Source: Pseudomonas phage EL. From it: 64,000 nucleotides of DNA. A program made the translations under genes and the position numbers. The DNA is taken from sequence record AJ697969.1; one strand, 5' to 3'. Positions 3,284-50,636 of the stretch are shown here, one piece after another; the first letter of the stretch is position 1; each line of letters begins with the position of its first letter. Below the pieces are notes generated by a model. It worked only from the letters and a program-made list of their open reading frames with translations. It ran no database searches and had not been told where the DNA came from.

Positions 3284-5452
3284 TCAGGCCGCAGTAGTGG
3301 CCAGATCCTGTTGGTTGTAAGCGTAGAGATCGAATTCCATCATGTACTTGGCTTTGTTAAACCAAGCGTGGAGAATCACACGCAGTTTCGCACGGGATCC
3401 GAGCGTTCCAGTTTCGTAGAACGTTTCTGCGACGATGTTGGAGACTTCACCCCCTACTGCGTTACGGCACGCGCTCTCGATCTCGTCTTTCATGATGGAG
3501 GCGTAGTTATCTGCGGTGATGGTACGGTCACCACAAACGATGCGCCATTGATCCGCGGAGATCTTCTCCATCGCCACGCACAGGAACGGGTTAGCCAGGT
3601 CCTTGAGGACCGAGTCGGGGTTCGGGTGAATGGTGGGGAGGCCCGGACGGTACGTTTGAACGTTCCAGTCCCAAGGCTTCAGGGAGATATGGCCGTTGCT
3701 GAAGTTCTCAGCCGCCACTTCATCTTCTTCGAAGACGATGTTGGGGGAGTGCATCAGACGGAGTTTACGGTTATCCGCATGATCCGGTGCGTTCGGAGTG
3801 ACGATCAAACCGTCGATGTTACCTGCCCACAGCGCAAAGGCATAGGCCAGGTCGATGTTACCCGAGAAGTACCAGCCGGTCGGTTCATCGGTGACTTTCG
3901 CTTCGATGAGGTTCACAGCTGCACGGCAGGCTGGGGTACCCCACTTCTCAGACTCGACCGTCATGCGCAGTCGATTGGTGATCATTGCAGCCCGAGAATA
4001 GATCTCTTCGAGACTGTTCTTCTCACCCGGTCTCCAGACACAGGCGTCTGCCACAACCAGAATGTCCTTACGGGCACCCAGGAACTGTTCGGCGATATCT
4101 TTTACTTCTTGGGAATAACCAATATCCCAGAAGATCGATTGACGGTTACGGGTGGTGTCTTTCATTTCCACACCATTCACGTAACTGGTCAGATCCGCCA
4201 CCATCAGTTTGTTGGTGATTTCCCACGCCTGAAGGTGAGTGAGAGGACGCTCGGTGTTAGTCAGCAGACCAAAGGGATCGTTGACTGTCGGCTTGGTAAC
4301 GTAATCAGGTACCTTACCGTCCTTATCCAGGAACGGCGAAATACCGCCCGAGGATTTAATAGCGCCGCTCAGGTCCCACTTGATAACACCCGAGGTGGTG
4401 ATGGCGTAGTAAGGCGCGCCGTTGTGGTTGGTGCAGGTGAACGGGTTCATCTGCTTGTAGTACTCACCGGGAACACCGACTTCTACCAGGGTATCATTTT
4501 CCGGCTGTTCCACCACATACATCATCTGACACAGGGTGTCGATGTTGTCCTGGTAAACGACCAGGTCGTTGAACGGAGCCGGAACCGGGTTACCCGGGGC
4601 GTTCTTGTTACGACCAGTAAAGGAGCCGAAACCCGTTTGCAGGCTGTACTGAACGCCGTTGAGGGACACCGGGAACAGGGTGAACTTGGCACTTTCCTGT
4701 TGGAGGGTGGTTTTCGAATACACACGAGTCCCATCGACTCCATCGGTGAACTGACGGAGGTCGTAAGGGAAAGTCCCCGTGGACCGAACGAATTCGGAAA
4801 TGGAACGCCAATTCAGCGCGTCCGCACGGACACCCAGGTTAAGGCCCGACTTGTTGTATTCGTCACCGACACCAGCCACCCCTTCGAACAGGGGGAGTAC
4901 CAGGGTTTCAGGGGTATCACCACTGGCGGCGATGGTGCGGACTTCGAGCGCGCCGGGTTCTTTACCCGCTGCGGCATCATCGATTTTGATTTCGATGTTC
5001 AGACCGTTCGGGTAGGTTTTACCCGGGATCGGAATACGCTCGCCGTTTTCGTTATACTTCCAACGGCCGTTGGCATCTCGTTCGTAGGCCTGAACTTCCA
5101 CTTTCTGAACAAACGCAGAGAGCGAGGCTTTCGAGACCACTTCGTTGACCGAGAGGCGGCGAATGCCGATGGTATTCTGGCGACCCAGGGCGAGCGCCTG
5201 GATCAGGACCGACGTTGGGCCGTAGTAGGGCGACTTCTCGTCGAAAATGTCACCAAAGATCTTTTTGACGTCTTGGGGGGCTACCCATTGGGTGCCTGCT
5301 TTAGACGCCAGTTTTCCTTTGGGGAAGATACCGTGGATAACAGGAAGGTGGAGCGGGGTGGTTGGCGGGGACGTGTCATATTCTGGAATAGAGTTGTCCC
5401 GAATCCCACTAATGTCCACCTTTCCAGGGACGATTCTGTTGAAAACAGTCAT
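3284..5452 (-). CDS. large virion structural protein candidate (722 aa; e.g. tail sheath or capsid class)
   Basis: ORF with highly optimised codon usage; start chosen at MTVFNRIV (ATG complement at 5450..5452) because GAGG lies 6 nt upstream on the minus strand. The longer ORF to 5539 has no RBS. Confidence 0.55.
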   Translation of the reverse strand: MTVFNRIVPGKVDISGIRDNSIPEYDTSPPTTPLHLPVIHGIFPKGKLASKAGTQWVAPQDVKKIFGDIFDEKSPYYGPTSVLIQALALGRQNTIGIRRLSVNEVVSKASLSAFVQKVEVQAYERDANGRWKYNENGERIPIPGKTYPNGLNIEIKIDDAAAGKEPGALEVRTIAASGDTPETLVLPLFEGVAGVGDEYNKSGLNLGVRADALNWRSISEFVRSTGTFPYDLRQFTDGVDGTRVYSKTTLQQESAKFTLFPVSLNGVQYSLQTGFGSFTGRNKNAPGNPVPAPFNDLVVYQDNIDTLCQMMYVVEQPENDTLVEVGVPGEYYKQMNPFTCTNHNGAPYYAITTSGVIKWDLSGAIKSSGGISPFLDKDGKVPDYVTKPTVNDPFGLLTNTERPLTHLQAWEITNKLMVADLTSYVNGVEMKDTTRNRQSIFWDIGYSQEVKDIAEQFLGARKDILVVADACVWRPGEKNSLEEIYSRAAMITNRLRMTVESEKWGTPACRAAVNLIEAKVTDEPTGWYFSGNIDLAYAFALWAGNIDGLIVTPNAPDHADNRKLRLMHSPNIVFEEDEVAAENFSNGHISLKPWDWNVQTYRPGLPTIHPNPDSVLKDLANPFLCVAMEKISADQWRIVCGDRTITADNYASIMKDEIESACRNAVGGEVSNIVAETFYETGTLGSRAKLRVILHAWFNKAKYMMEFDLYAYNQQDLATTAA

Positions 5453-16159: not shown

Positions 16160-17008
16160 TTAATTCCGACGTGGTGTTGCCATCCGTATTGCTTCAATAC
16201 GGGCTTGTTTATCCGACCACGTCATGCAGTTGATCCATGTGTTCTTGAAATACTCTTTGTATTGGGTCCACGCGTCACTGTAGGCCTGTATATCGTCCCG
16301 TATGGCGTCTAGGGGAACGCCTGAGCGATAAACCGCCTCTTGGGTAGGTCGCCTACAGGTTTTGTAAATATACGCCTTAACGGCCAATTCAACGAGCTCT
16401 GCGAACTGCCGGTAATGACGAGGGTGAATACTGCTCATCCCTTCATCGTATTCCAAGATTACTTTAGCACTCATGGAATACGTTCCCGCATTTAACCCAA
16501 AGATCACAAAGCAGTTATTACCGGTCATATGGACATTGGTGAACGTGACTGGCATACTGCGGTTAGAACTCAATCCCCCCAGTAAGCCATCCATCATGTC
16601 ATTCAGTACTCCGGACCCACACATCGTGTTCTCATTCACCCCGGCTCCTAACTGACCAACTGCGGAACTCATACTCCCCAGGTAGACTTCTGTCACACTG
16701 ATGATTTTAGCACCCCGAGTCGTCGCTTCCGGTACGTTCACCTCTACACACCCATTCCCCCGATCACGAATCATGGATCCTCCCAGATCCAACAACTCCG
16801 TCTTCCCACCCCCTACGTTACATTCCGGTAGAACAATACGGTGAATCACTTTCTCCCGTATACCCTGTTCCACGGTTGTCTGGTTAACCAGGTTATACCA
16901 ATTCCCCGCATAGTTCGCATTGGGGGTTTCAAAAGCGAGCTTCAACAAGTACTCATCGATATCACTGCCACTTACGACACGATTGATAGCATGGTCTACT
17001 GGATTCAT
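16160..17008 (-). CDS. hypothetical protein (282 aa)
   Basis: ORF; its 5' end faces the 650-bp divergent noncoding region. Confidence 0.55.
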   Translation of the reverse strand: MNPVDHAINRVVSGSDIDEYLLKLAFETPNANYAGNWYNLVNQTTVEQGIREKVIHRIVLPECNVGGGKTELLDLGGSMIRDRGNGCVEVNVPEATTRGAKIISVTEVYLGSMSSAVGQLGAGVNENTMCGSGVLNDMMDGLLGGLSSNRSMPVTFTNVHMTGNNCFVIFGLNAGTYSMSAKVILEYDEGMSSIHPRHYRQFAELVELAVKAYIYKTCRRPTQEAVYRSGVPLDAIRDDIQAYSDAWTQYKEYFKNTWINCMTWSDKQARIEAIRMATPRRN

Positions 17009-17009
17009 T

Positions 17010-17658
17010 TAAGGTGACCTCGTCTAACAAACCTTAACGGGTTTATATAAACCCGTTAACTAGGATTAGGGAATCATAACATCTTCCAGTAATTCATTAT
17101 TCGGTTTCCATTATATGTTCCACTTACCCAATTCTCATTTTGGAGGAGGGGGTAAGATTCTTTAGGACTGAGCGACATGAGCCTACGGCGAGTGGAGTGA
17201 AGGAGTAAAGAATCTTGGGGGAGGAGGCCCTACCGAAGGTAGAGTCCAGAGAAGAGAAAAGAGAAAATCCGAAGGAAAAACCTATTACTCCGTAATAGCT
17301 TTTGCTCTTTATATAAGCCCCGGAGGGGCTTATAAGGCAATAAAATTTAACTTTAGTATTTATTATTATTATAGGAAATTGCTTTTTTATTTAAAAAAGG
17401 AAAAATGAAGAGGAAATGAAAATGGGAAAAATACCTTTTAAATATTCCCTAAATTTCATTTGCTATTAAAGAAGTACCCCTTTCAAAGTCAATTACCCCG
17501 ACCGGCATTCCCGAACAGGGAAGCCGGCGTATAGGGTTTATAATGCAATACTGAAATAGGGTTAATGGATTTCAGTTCTACATTATCATTGGGTAATGAA
17601 AGAATACAGTTATTCGTATTGATATGTTTTGTTAAACCCAGAAGAGGAAGAGTGTGTA
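17010..17658. promoter_or_regulatory. 650-bp divergent intergenic regulatory region with palindromes, a long-range inverted repeat, purine mirror repeats and polypurine tracts
   Basis: no convincing ORF; perfect palindromes at 17034..17059, 17283..17299 and 17311..17337; inverted repeat AAGATTCTTTA (17154..17164) / TAAAGAATCTT (17206..17216) flanked by mirror repeats GGAGGAGGGGG / GGGGGAGGAGG; polypurine runs 17248..17282 and 17393..17433. Confidence 0.4.
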
Positions 17659-18207
17659 ATGACAACGATTGCTTATCGTGACGGTGTAATGGCGGCGGAT
17701 ACTCGTGTGGTCAACGGGGCCGATATGATCAACCTCGGAGAGCAACGTAAGATCCACGAACCGGGGGAAGGAGAGTACTGGAGTGTCAATGGTGACCGTA
17801 TTATCTGTTTTGGTTTGTCGGGGAGTCTGTCGGATCTGTTGGCCTTTAAAGAACTGTTGAGTGAAGGGATTACCTTTAAGACCAAAGCACCTGACCACCT
17901 CGTTGGGGACTCGAATATGCTCTGCGTGGGTGAACAGGGTAATGTTTGGCTGGTTTCAGCATTTAAACAACGAGACGGGAGTATGGTGTTTACGGTGTCA
18001 TGCGTACAACCCCCGTTTGCAATTGGATCGGGGGGTATTTACGCCAGTTCGGTGATGGCGGTGGGTAAAAGTGCGGTGGATGCAGTTAAAGTGGCGTGTA
18101 AGTTGGATATCTTTTCTGGCGGTCGTATTGATACCTGGGAACTCCCCCCTATTCCAGAAACCCCCAGTAAGCGCCCTGAACCGGCCGCCGATAAGACGGC
18201 AAAATAA
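17659..18207 (+). CDS. HslV / proteasome beta-subunit-like Ntn-hydrolase peptidase
   Basis: MTTIAYRDGVMAADTRV (Thr directly after initiator Met, as in HslV TTIVSVRRNG...AGDGQ); FAIGSGGIYA matches the HslV AIGSGGPYA motif; GLSGSLSD ~ GFAGGTAD; RBS GAGGAAG upstream. Confidence 0.7.
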   Translation: MTTIAYRDGVMAADTRVVNGADMINLGEQRKIHEPGEGEYWSVNGDRIICFGLSGSLSDLLAFKELLSEGITFKTKAPDHLVGDSNMLCVGEQGNVWLVSAFKQRDGSMVFTVSCVQPPFAIGSGGIYASSVMAVGKSAVDAVKVACKLDIFSGGRIDTWELPPIPETPSKRPEPAADKTAK

Positions 18208-18399
18208 TCCCTAGGGGGTAAGACCCTCAGAATGTAGGCGATGGAAACTAGAGTGTGTAGGTATTTTATGCCGATGACCTGCATTCACTCCATCGCCGGT
18301 CCTGGTGGGAAGGTTAGGAGTGTTAGACACCCACCACCCCTCAACTGCCCAAGCCTATTCTGTCAGGCTTGAGAGGGTTGCCTACAAAACGCTCCGCCC

Positions 18400-18460
18400 C
18401 TCCAGCTCTATGTCACTATGATGTAGAGCTGGAGGTCTTACTTCTTTTGTTTTTTATTTA
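18400..18460 (+). terminator. rho-independent terminator (stem CCTCCAGCTCTA/TAGAGCTGGAGG plus T-rich tract)
   Basis: 12-bp stem, 12-nt loop, then TCTTACTTCTTTTGTTTTTTATTT. Confidence 0.55.
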
Positions 18461-18560
18461 CCCAGGAGGGAATATCTTATACCGTTAAAGTGACCTGTTT
18501 CCACGCCATGGTTCTCTAGGTCACTGTAAGGGTACAACGTTATTGATCCTCTTGGATGCG

Positions 18561-18617
18561 CTAACGGGTGGTGTTATGGTCATATCGGCGGTTGCCCACC
18601 CGTTAGTCTTTTTTTTG
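18561..18617 (+). terminator. rho-independent terminator (stem CTAACGGGTGG/CCACCCGTTAG plus T8 run)
   Basis: 11-bp stem then TCTTTTTTTTG; lies inside the spurious N-terminal extension of the 18543 ORF. Confidence 0.65.
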
Positions 18618-18713
18618 ATTACGCTAGATAATTTGAAACCTAAATTATTAGCAGGCTATTGGAGAATAGTCCTTTTTAATGACTTCCCTGTAAACCAAAG
18701 AGAGCGATTCGAT

Positions 18714-19676
18714 ATGTCTCAGATTCAATACTACCTCATGGGCGGCGCGGGTATCAACATTGGTGCGGGTTTGAAAGAATATTCCCGTACGCGTGTGAAC
18801 AGTGATGCGGGGATGGTAGGTTTCGATACCAGTGATAAGAACTTCACGGCCGCGTTCCCCATTGAGCAACTCGAAGGGGTGAACGGGAGTGGTAAGGATT
18901 CCACCAAGCACTATGACAAACTCCTCCCCTTCGTAGCGGCTAACCTGAAGAAACACCGTCCCGGTGTTCACAACATCATCGTAGCCAGTACCGCTGGTGG
19001 TACTGGGCGTGTTATGGCGATGATTGCGTTGCGCCTGCTGGTCGAGTCGGGTAAAAACGTCATTCTCTGCCTGATCTCGGAACACACTTCCCTGGTGGAT
19101 AAAGAAAACGCAGTCAATGCCCTCCGTTCCTTTGCTAACCAGTGCCAACCCAATCAGCTGAACCGTCCGGTGTGCTACATGGAGTTCCTCAATACGCCGA
19201 ACCTGACCCGTAAGGAAGTCAACCTTCAGGCGATTGATTCACTGAATCTCCTGAGTCTCCTCTTTGATCCCGGTAATACGGAAATCGATGAGGAAGACAT
19301 TAAACGCTTCTTCAATTACTCGGCGGGGGGTAAAACCAGGCCGGCGTTGAGTCGTATTCATTTCTACGACCAGGATGGTGCAGCGGACTATACCGGTAAG
19401 GTACCGGTCTCGGTCGCCAGCCTGTACCCGAACAACGATGACGTGGTTCCTCGGTTTATGGGATCGGTTTACCGGACGACGGGTATTTTCTCCCCCAACA
19501 GTGATCGTCCGGAGGACATCAAAGAGCTGCACGTGACCCTCGATCACGGTGAAGCCCTGGAAGAACTGGAGAAAGAGATCGAAGGGCTGGAAACGGTTCA
19601 AGCTCAAGCTGCCGTTGACTTCTCTCAACAGAAGGACATTTCGGAAGGATCGAACGATCTGGGCTTCATGCTGTAA
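18714..19676 (+). CDS. phuZ: PhuZ-like phage tubulin/FtsZ-family GTPase
   Basis: MSQIQYYLMGGAGINIGAG (tubulin/FtsZ G-box N-terminal glycine loop) and IVASTAGGTGRV (tubulin T4 signature GGGTGSG-like); size 320 aa with acidic C-terminal tail, as in PhuZ. Start at 18714 chosen downstream of the two terminators. Confidence 0.8.
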   Translation: MSQIQYYLMGGAGINIGAGLKEYSRTRVNSDAGMVGFDTSDKNFTAAFPIEQLEGVNGSGKDSTKHYDKLLPFVAANLKKHRPGVHNIIVASTAGGTGRVMAMIALRLLVESGKNVILCLISEHTSLVDKENAVNALRSFANQCQPNQLNRPVCYMEFLNTPNLTRKEVNLQAIDSLNLLSLLFDPGNTEIDEEDIKRFFNYSAGGKTRPALSRIHFYDQDGAADYTGKVPVSVASLYPNNDDVVPRFMGSVYRTTGIFSPNSDRPEDIKELHVTLDHGEALEELEKEIEGLETVQAQAAVDFSQQKDISEGSNDLGFML

Positions 19677-19752: not shown

Positions 19753-19814
19753 TAATGAGTTTTTACTAAAATGGGCATTATTATACAGGCTTAATTAAAT
19801 ATAGGGGTTAGAAG

Positions 19815-20108
19815 GTGTCTATAAGCTTCTCTGTTGATTTATCAAGGGGTTACCTATACCGACCTACCGGTTCAGGTAAAAACGTCGTGTTAAGGAAAAT
19901 AGACCGGTTTGACGTGGTACACTGTTTACAGGCATTAGGGTACCACAACCTGAACGAACGCAGTCTGAATCGTCGAGCTATGGTCTTTATTCCGTCTCTG
20001 GAGGAGGACATCACGAAATTCACGATCGGTGTACCGAGTGATGCACAGGTTCGTATTCGTGGGATTGGGAAGTGCTCCCAACGGTTATTGATTACATTTG
20101 TTTATTAA
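19815..20108 (+). CDS. hypothetical protein (GTG start, weak)
   Basis: ORF only; no good RBS. Confidence 0.25.
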   Translation: MSISFSVDLSRGYLYRPTGSGKNVVLRKIDRFDVVHCLQALGYHNLNERSLNRRAMVFIPSLEEDITKFTIGVPSDAQVRIRGIGKCSQRLLITFVY

Positions 20109-29668: not shown

Positions 29669-31082
29669 CAATGATTACCCTATTCCTCTACCAGGAGGAA
29701 TTCGTGCAGATAGAAAGGATATACACAACTCCTATTGAACATCCAGAGGAAGTTGGGTTTTATAAACATCCAACATTGCCGATTTGGTTGTCTAAAGACG
29801 ACGATCGGATCCTCACAGAAACAGGTTTCGTGGAACCAAGCATAGGCGGCGAATACAAGTACTACATTCGTCAGCACCTCCATGTGTTGAAACTAGAGAC
29901 ATTTCTTGAGAAGCCCAGCTCAACTATCAAGTTGTGGGGGAATCACAGGGATGGCGACAAGCGCAATAATCACCTGGAAAACTTGGAGTGGTGTACTCCG
30001 TCAATGAATTTGATCCATGCGTTTAAGACCGGTCTTAGGTCGGATAACCTTCCCGGTTTACTCACCGATCTAGAAACAGGTGAGGTCAAATCATTTACGA
30101 GTTTAAGGGAATGCGCTACCTACTTAGGTATCAATCCTGGTACACTCACTGTTTACATGAAATCTGATAGAAAGTATCCGCTCAAGTTTAAGTACTCTGT
30201 GCGTCTAATATCGGAAGAGCCTAGCAAACTGACTGCTGACGACATTGGTAAAGTAAGGAAGGGTGGACCCAAACCTTGCAAGATCGTCAATAAACTCACT
30301 GGCGAAATAAAGCATCTGGCCTTTGAGAAAAGCATTCAGGAACTGTTCGGTTTATCTGAGAGACGTTATCAGCGTGCTTTGAAAGAACGTGGATACGAAG
30401 ACTGGATTTTCGAAGAAGTGAAGACGTATGAAGAATACGTCGAGTGTTTAAAGGATGATAAGGCGAAGACTGTAAAGTCTAACCGACATCTTTCTTTAGT
30501 CAAGGAAAAACAGTTGGCTACAGCTAAGAAGATTGTGGTTACTAACAATCTGACAGGCGAAATAACTGAATTCGACAATCTTAGTGACTTCTCAATGGAG
30601 AATGGTTTCATGATAAGCGAGATCAACCGCGCTTTGAAAACCAAAGATTCATGGAGAGAATTCACATTTAAATATCTGGAATAGGGTAATTGTTAAAGGC
30701 TCACCAGGCACGAAAGTCCTGGATGAGAATCTCTTTAATTGCTGGAACACCCACAAAAGTGAACCACCTTACGTAACCGTAAGGGGACGAAAGTCAGAAA
30801 CAACGGTTCACCTGTCCTACGCTAACCAATAACGCTAAGGGATACTGACAAGGGGCAACCAGCAGCGAAGCCTGTTGTTATTCAACAGGAACGTTCAACG
30901 GCCATTCGATGACCCGTAATCTGATTACGGCGAGAAGTAGGGTAGCAAGCTAATGGCACCCGAAACAGGAGACACCTAATCCCTAACCGGGAATGGTGAT
31001 GATATGGTCTGACCACGGTTTAATAGACCGTGCAGGTGTCTGTGCACACCGGGTAATGAGTAGCGTCATTACTGGACAAGTG
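29669..31082 (+). mobile_element. putative self-splicing group I intron carrying an HNH homing endonuclease ORF, inserted inside the beta' NADFDGD codons
   Basis: 5' exon ends in U (gcT); the proposed intron ends in G immediately before gat ttt gat ggt gat (DFDGD); the 3' ~400 nt (30685..31082) is non-coding and full of GNRA (GAAA) tetraloop hairpins and nested stems; HEG has divergent AT-rich codon usage. Confidence 0.5.
29671..30684 (+). CDS. HNH homing endonuclease with C-terminal NUMOD-like DNA-binding repeats
   Basis: WGNHRDGDKRNNHLENLEWCTPSMN is a classic phage HNH motif (H-N-H with invariant Asn); three helix-turn-helix-like repeats (ECATYLGINPGTLTVYM, ELFGLSERRYQRALKERG, MENGFMISEINRALKT); codon usage distinct from neighbours. 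Confidence 0.75.
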   Translation: MITLFLYQEEFVQIERIYTTPIEHPEEVGFYKHPTLPIWLSKDDDRILTETGFVEPSIGGEYKYYIRQHLHVLKLETFLEKPSSTIKLWGNHRDGDKRNNHLENLEWCTPSMNLIHAFKTGLRSDNLPGLLTDLETGEVKSFTSLRECATYLGINPGTLTVYMKSDRKYPLKFKYSVRLISEEPSKLTADDIGKVRKGGPKPCKIVNKLTGEIKHLAFEKSIQELFGLSERRYQRALKERGYEDWIFEEVKTYEEYVECLKDDKAKTVKSNRHLSLVKEKQLATAKKIVVTNNLTGEITEFDNLSDFSMENGFMISEINRALKTKDSWREFTFKYLE

Positions 31083-31274
31083 GATTTTGATGGTGATTCC
31101 ATGTATGCCATCTTCTTGATTGACTTGGAGTCTAAAGCGAAAGCCTACGGGGGATTAGGTCATCATCAGGTATTGGATAACAACGTTCCCTTCAAGATCA
31201 GCAAGTATGCGGGACAAACCGCTACCAACCTGATGAACTTCAATACCCTCATGCTACAGAAACCGATTGAGTAA
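31083..31274 (+). CDS. RNA polymerase beta' N-terminal part, exon 2 (begins DFDGDSMYAIF...). Alternatively an independently translated fragment 30993..31274 if the gene is split rather than spliced
   Basis: ITGQV-DFDGDSMYAIF matches the beta' Mg-binding motif NADFDGDQMAVHV; in frame with ORF 30993..31274. Confidence 0.5.
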   Translation, partial: DFDGDSMYAIFLIDLESKAKAYGGLGHHQVLDNNVPFKISKYAGQTATNLMNFNTLMLQKPIE

Positions 31275-31931: not shown

Positions 31932-31934
31932 GGT

Positions 31935-31996
31935 GTCTAAACCAAGCAGGGGTGGTTCCCTGCTTGGTTTATTATGACCTTTTATTTTGTCTTTCT
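31935..31996 (+). terminator. rho-independent terminator (AAACCAAGCAGGG/CCCTGCTTGGTTT plus T-rich run)
   Basis: 13-bp stem, 6-nt loop, then ATTATGACCTTTTATTTTGTCTTTC. Confidence 0.5.
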
Positions 31997-32030
31997 ATAG
32001 AGAGCCTTCTTTCTTTAGGGAGTTAACAGT

Positions 32031-32438
32031 ATGGCGCGGTTTTGCGTAGGGACAATGGACAGTAAGTTAGGGTGGGAGACTCAGTCTCCTGATACCGCTA
32101 TTTCACGTCATGTGACCTATTGGTTTACCAGTCGAGAGAACCAAGGTAAACTGATTGGAGGTGTGCCTAGTTTCTACATGATCTTTAAAGACTTCGCTCA
32201 ATACCCCGATCAAATGGTGGAACAAGTCCAGGACAAATTCAAGGCGTACCTGGAGGAATTGTTCGACGAAGTCATGGTGGGTGTAAGTCGACAAAATGTT
32301 ACTGGGAGTGTCAATAATTACAGGCTCATACTGACCGCTCGTGTCGTAGTGGACAATATGAAGTATGACTTGGCGCAAACCATTCTGATCACCGGTGAAC
32401 TGTACAAAGTTCTGGACTTAGAGAGACTTAAACGATGA
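32031..32438 (+). CDS. hypothetical protein (135 aa)
   Basis: ORF. Confidence 0.5.
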   Translation: MARFCVGTMDSKLGWETQSPDTAISRHVTYWFTSRENQGKLIGGVPSFYMIFKDFAQYPDQMVEQVQDKFKAYLEELFDEVMVGVSRQNVTGSVNNYRLILTARVVVDNMKYDLAQTILITGELYKVLDLERLKR

Positions 32439-50170: not shown

Positions 50171-50210
50171 GGTCCCAGGGGGTTTCCCTTTATGTCGGGG
50201 TACCGCTACT

Positions 50211-50636
50211 ATGCCGCTATTCAAACGTCAGCCCATGCTGATCATTTCATGCCCTAACATCGGACAGATCAGCTGGGTAGCCACCCAGTTGGTCGAGGAC
50301 TCCCTTTACCACATCTTTGCGGATGGTTCACTCGTTGAAGATGATATTCTGGAAGAATGGTTAGAAACCGAAACCGAAAACATCCTTTTTGATGAAGAGG
50401 GACAGGTTAAAATGTCCCCCCTACTGCACGAGCAGGAATATTGGAACCTGGTTAAGGATCCTCACGCCATGACCGAGTTTTACATGGACGAAGCCCTCGG
50501 TATTCTGGATCACCTTTTCCAGTTAAATAAGGACAAGCTCGCAGAGGTGTCAAATACGCTCTCTGTTGAACGTTACTGGGTAATCCGACATCTCCCTAAC
50601 CATTGGCTCATAAAACTCTATGGTGACCCTAAATGA
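50211..50636 (+). CDS. hypothetical acidic protein (start uncertain)
   Basis: ORF; no clear RBS for any of the candidate starts. Confidence 0.4.
   Translation: MPLFKRQPMLIISCPNIGQISWVATQLVEDSLYHIFADGSLVEDDILEEWLETETENILFDEEGQVKMSPLLHEQEYWNLVKDPHAMTEFYMDEALGILDHLFQLNKDKLAEVSNTLSVERYWVIRHLPNHWLIKLYGDPK

Follow-up and report, generated by a model that had tools for sequence, protein, structure and literature searches.

What does the long non-coding gap between two divergent genes of Pseudomonas phage EL do? Within the 64,000 nucleotides (nt) of this genome analyzed here (record AJ697969.1; hereafter the window), positions 17009-17658 separate a - strand gene (16160..17008) encoding a protein of 282 amino acids (aa) from a + strand gene encoding an HslV-like peptidase (ATG at 17659). 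A sequence-only reading, made without database searches, had singled this region out by its size, and rightly so: no other gap in the window is as long, and it is among the two longest of the ~210-kb genome. That reading described three perfect palindromes, a long-range inverted repeat set between purine mirror repeats, two long A/G-only runs, and a 17-codon open reading frame (ORF), and it proposed a replication origin, a cluster of promoters and operators, or a source of small RNAs. We think, with moderate confidence, that this EL-like nucleus-forming phage uses the gap as a transcription hub, at whose centre lies the gene for a previously undescribed structured non-coding RNA (ncRNA).

The locus was compared at two depths. 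The 861 bases around the gap match eight Pseudomonas aeruginosa phage records (MIZ-Pa99, GXNNE2, GXNNA8, HHBS8_1, HHBS47_1, phiRU, PaBa1, and vB_PQ1) at 96-99% identity; seven of these are ~210 kb long and one is a fragmented assembly of 184 kb, and the records carrying a full lineage are classed as Elvirus in the Chimalliviridae, the nucleus-forming jumbo phages related to phiKZ. Comparisons within Elvirus are of six genomes. MIZ-Pa99 runs colinear with the window over its first 64 kb, and genome-wide counts were made on a pseudo-genome joining the window to the remainder of MIZ-Pa99. More distant loci (given L numbers below) were collected from viral contigs and metagenomes via homologues of the 282-aa protein.

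Among the six Elvirus genomes, positions 17129-17355 form a block of 227 nt without any change; 5-11% of columns vary in the rest of the gap, and ~10% in the HslV gene. In the more distant loci L009 and L018 the centre of the gap is recognizably homologous to window positions 17114-17230, and the stem of the inverted repeat, which the sequence-only reading had placed correctly, has been swapped for other complements: the window has AAGATTCTTTA/TAAAGAATCTT, L009 has AGAGTAA/TTACTCT, and L018 has GGTAAGG/CCTTACC. The hairpin closed by this stem (P2) is 63 nt long in all three, and its G-rich flanks are retained. A covariance model built from these three sequences adds L079, L069, L076, and a truncated L008, and it finds exactly one copy per genome, located 70-200 nt upstream of and divergent from the 282-aa gene; no second copy was found in the genome or in the locus of Erwinia phage RisingSun. 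The element is present in five further lineages, all uncultivated, in which the neighboring protein is 65-76% identical. In the alignment, 90% of cells are paired, as compared to 41-54% when the partners are slid, compensatory changes are seen in 18 of 27 pairs, and none of 500 shuffles reaches the observed values. The hairpin equivalent to palindrome 3, which occurs with differing sequences in five lineages, is 100% paired with compensatory changes in 5 of 6 pairs, a test that is partly circular because these hairpins were picked by position. Our core finding is a putative new family of structured RNA, restricted to EL-like chimalliviruses and lying in what appears to be a standard promoter/terminator arrangement. 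The existence, strand, and architecture of the predicted RNA are well supported by these comparisons.

The folding molecule is most readily taken to be + strand RNA, rather than DNA or the opposite transcript, because the helix cells hold 25 G-U as against 1 A-C and because the + strand folds better (-75.7 kcal/mol, z -3.4) than the - strand (-58.8 kcal/mol, z -1.9). This asymmetry also bears on the view that the gap holds DNA-level structures only, i.e., cruciforms and H-DNA in the role of operators or topological elements, and that no RNA functions there. The palindromes are indeed perfect, the homopurine mirror repeat extends over 11 nt, and mirror symmetry is the defining requirement of H-DNA. 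However, helices that accept G-U and hardly any A-C indicate selection on one RNA strand, the UUCG and GNA loops are stabilizers of RNA or of hairpins, and palindrome 1 varies in its centre among Elvirus genomes while its outer 8-bp stem (TTAACGGG/CCCGTTAA) is invariant. The last observation identifies palindrome 1, whose hairpin is found in Elvirus only and is absent from relatives, as a stem-loop and not an operator. H-DNA, moreover, calls for a homopurine-homopyrimidine mirror repeat with a short spacer, whereas the halves of this repeat are 63 nt apart and the helix between them is RNA-selected, so that the H-DNA interpretation is unsupported in the form in which it was put forward. We consider an explanation by DNA structures alone very unlikely. 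The supposed cluster of promoters and operators survives in its first half, as promoter motifs do face both ways, but the palindromes are RNA hairpins and not operators, since their stems co-vary, their centers and loops change, and G-U is tolerated on one strand only. Comparison also supports the suggestion of a small-RNA source, for which there is now a covariation-supported + strand structured RNA with a promoter-like start and predicted hairpin ends.

As drawn from the alignment, this RNA would start at UAUGU and comprise a conserved 5' domain and a lineage-variable 3' domain, followed by a GC-rich hairpin (Table 1). P2 has tandem G-A internal loops and an apex of the form GCC-NNN-GGC or CCC-UUCG-GGG (GCC-UAC-GGC in the window). 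Compensatory or co-ordinated changes preserve the inverted repeat, palindrome 3, and the mirror repeats in distant relatives; palindrome 2 and the 20-nt A/G run are specific to Elvirus.

Nothing else at the locus is as unusual or as poorly explained as the mirror repeats, which form two purine arms at the base of P2. In the window the two arms match over 11 nt; in L069 the match extends to 12 nt, and in both L009 and L079 it covers 9 nt. The arms of L076 match at 10 of 12 positions, 7 of them in a row starting at the base of P2, and those of L018 are out of register by one G. The arms change jointly, with an extra A in both arms of L069 (GGAGGAAGGGGG/GGGGGAAGGAGG) and six G in both arms of L076, and each arm of the window, L069, and L076 is matched better by its own partner than by the partner from any other lineage. 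Neither ordinary base pairing nor a dimeric protein makes any use of mirror symmetry. An in-register antiparallel contact between purine strands would require it, which suggests a triplex with the leader helix P1, a purine zipper, or a hairpin-type quadruplex. An intra-arm G-quadruplex was considered and discarded, being predicted only for Elvirus and L069.

The sequences listed in the sequence-only reading are all present, some of them at slightly different positions. Palindrome 1 lies exactly where it had been placed; three features (palindrome 2, misplaced by 1 nt, palindrome 3, given as 17311..17337, and the 17-codon ORF, given as 17420..17473) were off by 1-4 nt. Of the two long A/G-only runs, the one of 20 nt at 17248-17267 is uninterrupted, and the other, at 17393-17432, is broken by T.

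Table 1. Features of the divergent gap and its flanking genes (window coordinates)
Feature	Position	Strand	Sequence	Remarks
Gene for 282-aa protein	16160..17008	-		Chimallivirus-wide; homologue of PhiPA3 gp037
Predicted 5' untranslated region (UTR) of 282-aa gene	17009..17075	-		67 nt, with palindrome 1 stem-loop
Palindrome 1	17034-17059		TTAACGGGTTTATATAAACCCGTTAA	
Late-type promoter motif, leftward	17075..17082	-	ATGTTATG	Predicted start G17075; phiKZ-like T-3 A T G+1
Late-type promoter motif, rightward	17110..17117	+	ATTATATG	Predicted ncRNA start G17117
Conserved 5' domain	17117..17230	+		P1, arm 1, P2, arm 2
P1, pyrimidine-rich leader	17123-17136	+		Forms a helix with arm 1; 14 bp long in L018, several of them G-U
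Arm 1	17143-17153	+	GGAGGAGGGGG	
P2	17154-17216	+		63-nt hairpin; the long-range inverted repeat (17154-17164 and 17206-17216)
Arm 2	17217-17227	+	GGGGGAGGAGG	Mirror image of arm 1
Lineage-variable 3' domain	17230..17311	+		
Small hairpin	17230-17242	+	CTACC-GAA-GGTAG	Equivalent in every lineage
Purine run	17248-17267	+		20 nt; predicted pairing with CTTTTGCTCTTT (17299-17310)
Hairpin	17268-17276	+	TCC-GAA-GGA	
Palindrome 2 hairpin	17282-17298	+	CTATTAC-TCC-GTAATAG	In the variable 3' domain
Palindrome 3	17312..17334	+	TATAAGCCCC-GGA-GGGGCTTATA	GC-rich hairpin; C(GNA)G triloop; no U-tract after it
AT-rich spacer	17335..17495	.		Contains the non-conserved 17-codon ORF
17-codon ORF	17416-17469			AAGGA/GAGGA upstream
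Hairpin H2	17502-17527	+	CCGGCATTCCC-GAACA-GGGAAGCCGG	
Box after H2	17532-17547	+	TAGGGTTTATAATGCA	
Common phage promoter motif	17571..17586	+	TTCAGTTCTACATTAT	Genome consensus TTTTAAACCTACATTAT; kept in relatives
Predicted 5' UTR and ribosome-binding site of HslV-like gene	17587..17658	+	AGAGGAAGAG	
HslV-family peptidase gene	17659..18207	+		Opens the rightward operon
PhuZ tubulin gene	18714-19676	+		In an operon with the HslV-like gene

Two late-type promoter motifs stand back to back, with predicted starts 42 bp apart. The leftward motif reads ATG(Y)TATG(A/G) in most relatives, with a degenerate ATGTTATAG in L018, and the rightward one reads AT(T/G)NTATGT in 6 of 7 lineages, with a degenerate ATTCTATTGT in L076; the TATG core itself is found in 6 of 7 lineages at either site, the exceptions being TATAG (leftward, L018) and TATTG (rightward, L076). 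In the lineages that keep both octamers, the neighboring protein is merely 65-76% identical. Across the genome ATKNTATG occurs 24 times, and 12 of these copies precede a same-strand gene by no more than 150 nt, where the background rate is 6.8% (binomial p ~1e-8 by our own arithmetic) and plain NNNNTATG gives 8.5%; several of the genes downstream are annotated as baseplate or virion structural genes. The late promoters of phiKZ, the type phage of the family, which is independent of the host polymerase, have only T-3 A T G+1 in common and start at G (PMC7598289). In the core of both octamers, and in the genome-wide position of the motif upstream of genes, there is what is expected of phiKZ-type late promoters, i.e., those of the non-virion RNA polymerase (nvRNAP), and we predict both octamers to be such.

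A different motif precedes the HslV-like gene. Genome-wide, AAACCTACATTAT is the sole over-represented word upstream of genes; 8 of the 11 genome copies of CTANATTAT lie within 150 nt of a same-strand start, and the four exact copies in the window, one of which is at 17578-17586 in the gap, all lie between genes, on the + strand, with 31-74 nt separating them from a start codon. Because the phage-specific, highly conserved motif of ~10 nt that can be found bioinformatically in jumbo phages is the early, virion-RNA-polymerase promoter (PMC7598289), we read 17571-17586 as probably being of this class, i.e., the early promoter of the HslV-PhuZ operon. A scan for sigma-70 promoters gave no sites above those of shuffled sequences, and it has little bearing on a family whose type phage does without the host polymerase. 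Other candidates were rejected: TTTATTACGC is without enrichment as a promoter and is the terminator tail; TTATTATA, considered as an AT-rich promoter, has just 2 copies in the genome; and TAACGGGT, shared by palindrome 1 and a hairpin at 18561-18606 and considered as a protein site, is made of 7-mers common genome-wide, pointing to coincidence. The two copies of TTATTATA, at 17366-17373 in the hub spacer and at 19778-19785, 35 nt before the gene at 19815, are both on the + strand in AT-rich intergenic sequence. An inverted repeat at 17550-17576, overlapping the hslV promoter, has one arm that varies uncompensated, so it is not a conserved hairpin.

One predicted end lies beyond palindrome 3 and the AT-rich spacer, at the hairpin H2. 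Eight nt after H2 comes GGGTTTATAAT, the intervening and following sequence having the form GG(G)TA(A)GGGTTTAT. The position of H2 is conserved in five lineages in which its sequences differ, and the + strand form is the more stable in four of them and about equal in the window. Other gene-end hairpins in the genome are likewise followed by TTTAT(T), often with a copy of the AAACCTA promoter close behind. We predict on this pattern that H2 is a standard terminator of + strand transcription begun inside the gap: given a terminator here and no + strand gene upstream of it in the gap, a + transcript should start within the gap and be insulated from hslV. Palindrome 3 would be either the 3' end of a short form of the RNA or an internal hairpin.

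The spacer itself admits another explanation. Positions 17326-17475 contain 22% G+C, the lowest 150-nt value of the 210-kb genome (the next locus has 31%), and the sequence drifts even within Elvirus while AT-richness is kept in all lineages, which is how an unwinding element behaves. A transcription-primed origin would use the promoter at 17117 to make a G-rich transcript that forms an R-loop at 17326-17475 and primes the leading strand, the conserved RNA hairpins serving to position or process the primer. The order expected of such an origin, a promoter and then a DNA unwinding element, is the one found (17110-17117, then 17326-17475). The RNA element is single-copy, the non-template strand carries G-clusters immediately downstream of the start (joined in Elvirus by the 20-nt polypurine run), genes for RNase H, helicases, and a UvsX-like recombinase are present in the phage, and the jumbo-phage review searched mentions no origin. 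On the other hand, an RNA gene would account at least equally well for the strong selection on RNA folding and for a dedicated, predicted terminator directly behind the spacer, the polypurine run is not conserved outside Elvirus, no iterons are conserved, and GC skew, including cumulative skew, shows nothing special at the hub and is uninformative as an origin marker. We regard an origin of this type as unlikely, though a serious rival. A more specific version is that the RNA and the AT-rich spacer together form the origin, with a late or middle promoter making the primer and the mirror arms locking the R-loop through triplex- or quadruplex-type interactions, either between themselves or with the strand of DNA that has been displaced; this, too, we think unlikely, and would put forward only tentatively.

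The RNA could also be a cis-acting leader of hslV. The RNA is co-oriented with the HslV-like gene wherever that gene has been identified (window, L009, and L018), and a conserved 5' domain followed by a variable, hairpin-ended region is the layout of an aptamer with its expression platform. The 5' domain might then be a riboswitch-like sensor, or a polymerase modifier like put of HK022, which decides late read-through past palindrome 3 and H2 into the HslV-PhuZ operon. But domain and gene are ~320 nt apart, with two hairpins and a promoter of the operon's own in between, and this makes a cis-acting leader less likely; nor is there a conserved alternative anti-terminator pairing or an Rfam riboswitch match. 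We find this explanation distinctly improbable, and the independent RNA gene remains our preferred interpretation.

Searches for known families were negative. In the gap, no Rfam family reached the gathering threshold (best E-value 0.86 in a permissive search with E up to 10), the homologous sites of L009, L018, L079, and L076 gave nothing at E up to 1, and a scan for tRNA and tmRNA found none. Exact-pattern scans of viral and bacterial collections for both arms yielded, besides known phage contigs, chance matches only among the matches listed, and a rescan with the covariance model recovered the element in 0 of 100 loci out of at least 162 (all 80 listed bacterial or archaeal loci and 20 of the 42 viral ones). 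The sole Rfam match in the window is a group I intron (RF00028) at 30681-31032 (+), which scores 54.9 bits, above the gathering score, and which, with ORF 29671-30684 on one side and ORF 30993-31274 on the other, presumably splits a single gene. Elsewhere in the same genome, L090 22433-22780 (MIZ-Pa99 82433-82780, outside the window) is a non-coding stretch of ~350 nt with a pyrimidine and then a purine tract (GAGAGAGAGGGAAGAGAGGGAA), a CCCCC-GGAA-GGGGG hairpin, and ATTGTATTG before it; it looks like a second candidate for a purine/pyrimidine-rich structured RNA.

Small proteins are the remaining alternative. The 17-codon ORF had been named the only coding candidate and does exist, with ribosome-binding-like sequences before it, and ORFs of 34-58 aa appear in some GenBank records, small coding sequences (CDSs) being annotated in the gap of MIZ-Pa99, HHBS8_1, and vB_PQ1. 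These annotations disagree between records, and two records annotate nothing. An encoded small protein should leave an in-frame ORF across relatives, but in 4 of 6 Elvirus genomes a 1-nt indel falls inside this ORF, from which we conclude that it is not a conserved coding sequence, and no such ORF is conserved in L009, L018, or other relatives. In addition, substitutions in the gap are paired across helices and are not codon-patterned. It is extremely unlikely that small proteins account for the locus, and several of the small "hypothetical protein" CDSs in GenBank records are probably spurious.

Taken as a transcription hub, the gap might work as follows. The leftward late-type promoter would fire at 17075 into the virion-protein operon, with palindrome 1 as a stem-loop in the 5' UTR of the mRNA, and the rightward one would fire at 17117 to give a non-coding transcript. 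This transcript would fold into a leader paired to arm 1, P2, the mirror arm 2, a variable middle, and the GC hairpin of palindrome 3, and would be ~220 nt long if it ends there and ~430 nt long if it reaches the terminator. The AU-rich stretch and the hairpin terminator (17502-17547) would insulate the RNA from the HslV-PhuZ operon, which would use its own copy of the common promoter at 17571-17586. Our guess is that the RNA is made late by the nvRNAP, is stable, and acts in trans. At the base of P2, the two G-rich, Shine-Dalgarno-like arms, kept in register, would form its conserved functional surface. Most plausibly this surface would bind a protein or the 30S subunit, or act on it as a decoy, and the arms would touch each other in a purine zipper, a triplex, or a quadruplex-like arrangement.

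Several points weigh against this account. The invariant block is not unique in length, as the neighboring gene has an invariant run of 217 nt, so the block is suggestive and not decisive. The covariance alignment is model-fitted, and only 6-7 lineages are independent. We found no Elvirus transcriptome in the literature searched, and starts, ends, and timing are motif predictions; the 3' end in particular is uncertain, at ~220 or ~430 nt, because palindrome 3 has no U-tract after it and a simple consensus terminator scan made no call at H2. All-RNA triplexes of the purine motif are disfavored in vitro, and intra-arm quadruplexes are predicted in Elvirus and L069 only. As for the decoy idea, arm 1 is predicted to be paired with the leader, no convincing extended complementary target for the arms was found in the phage genome, and GGA is not above dinucleotide expectation. 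A sponge for RsmA/CsrA was rejected on the last ground: each RNA has 7-9 GGA, which is not beyond composition (dinucleotide-shuffle p 0.06-0.70), only one GGA of the window RNA lies in a hairpin loop, a triloop at that, and GGAGG is enriched in the window copy only.

The setting of the hub is conserved beyond the RNA. The homologue of the 282-aa protein in KTN4 is annotated as a "putative virion-associated protein", and in the window its gene is the first of a leftward three-gene block that comes after the large terminase gene. Many loci with this protein keep a divergent gap of 400-700 nt adjoining an HslV-like gene; in phiKZ the equivalent gap is only 136 nt, and in RisingSun the 282-aa homologue stands behind tail genes with no gap upstream. 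A gap of 400-700 nt from the HslV-like to the 282-aa gene is also seen in two other clades of uncultivated phages, L011-L014, L016, L017, and L021 (about 3300-4000, - strand) and L010, L015, and L020. Their gaps have different structured content, with long hairpins, a CCTATATATTCTATTTG box, and their own AT-rich palindromic core, ATATATATTTATATATAT, flanked by CGCGC-rich repeats, and the covariance model has no match in either clade. Since these clades keep a long gap with different content, the slot itself, and not the RNA alone, appears to be conserved. In L009 (2180-3544, -) two tandem HslV-like genes (227 and 220 aa), and not one, lie downstream of the hub.

Further observations concern the neighborhood and the records used. 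Between the HslV-like gene and PhuZ there is a second long stretch (18208-18713, 506 nt) with several GC-rich hairpins, among them the terminator-like one at 18561-18606, which has a T8 tail, along with ATTTTATG at 18263-18270 and a promoter motif at 18637-18648; the tiny CDSs annotated there differ between GenBank records, and the stretch may hold further non-coding transcripts. The gaps at 50171-50617 and 31932-32317, each of ~400 nt, have ordinary G+C, look coding-like, and contain no ORF of at least 70 aa in a crude gene call; they could be short genes, frameshifts, or genes with unusual starts. Two records (PV472050.1 and PQ516283.1) concern MIZ-Pa99 and vB_PQ1. The Straboviridae label of MIZ-Pa99 is at odds with its 98.7% identity to the window over the 861-nt hub region, which also matches Elvirus-classed records, and with the PhuZ and split RNA polymerase subunits that it encodes. 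In vB_PQ1 (184 kb, 488 features) genes are fragmented, PhuZ for example being in two pieces, which suggests indel-rich sequencing.

Nucleus-forming jumbo phages are therapy candidates and models of compartmentalized viral replication, and their ncRNAs have barely been catalogued. The hub RNA offers a concrete object for such work, single-copy and covariation-supported, with a start and ends that are predicted and with mirror purine arms at the base of a hairpin of constant length. Should it act in trans, it would represent a new phage RNA family, probably targeting host translation or RNA-binding machinery; should it be a primer, it would locate the origin, which would be the first defined for Chimalliviridae and one with RNA-structure-dependent priming. 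The analysis also provides two usable promoter consensus sequences for Elvirus, ATKNTATG and AAACCTACATTAT.

How does the hub compare with known systems? Transcription-primed origins such as T4 oriF and oriG, the primary origin of T7, ColE1 with its RNA II, and mitochondrial conserved sequence block II (CSB II) are built from elements of this kind, and the hub resembles T4 oriF/oriG, T7, and ColE1 in having a promoter, a G-rich structured transcript, and a very AT-rich segment; it differs in that its AT-rich segment is followed by a predicted standard terminator. With CsrB, RsmY, and RsmZ it shares a purine-rich RNA of ~200 nt with 7-9 GGA and several GGAGG, in a host that uses RsmA/RsmN, but its GGA motifs are unenriched and lie mostly in internal loops and arms instead of hexaloops, and it has no Rfam match. 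The arms recall the homopurine mirror repeats of H-DNA in their 11-nt perfect repeat and conserved symmetry, and differ in that a 63-nt hairpin comes between their halves and that the helices around them are selected as RNA.

Closer parallels are found within the family. The TATG of phiKZ late promoters (PMC7598289) is common to both outward-facing predicted starts of the gap, whereas its AT(G/T)N extension is a feature of Elvirus that was derived in this analysis. Small RNAs (sRNAs) of giant Pseudomonas phages have been identified by ONT-cappable-seq, including sRNA005 of 201phi2-1, which has a counterpart upstream of phiKZ gp182, a locus said to be conserved in EL (PMC11512511). We rejected homology of the hub to this locus, as the neighboring gene is different: the sRNA005-type sRNAs lie in the 5' UTR of the tail gene gp182/gp277, while the hub RNA is divergent from a gp037-homologue neighbor. 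In kind, nevertheless, the two are alike, each being a short ncRNA of a chimallivirus with a phage promoter, a nearby hairpin, and a position conserved between genera.

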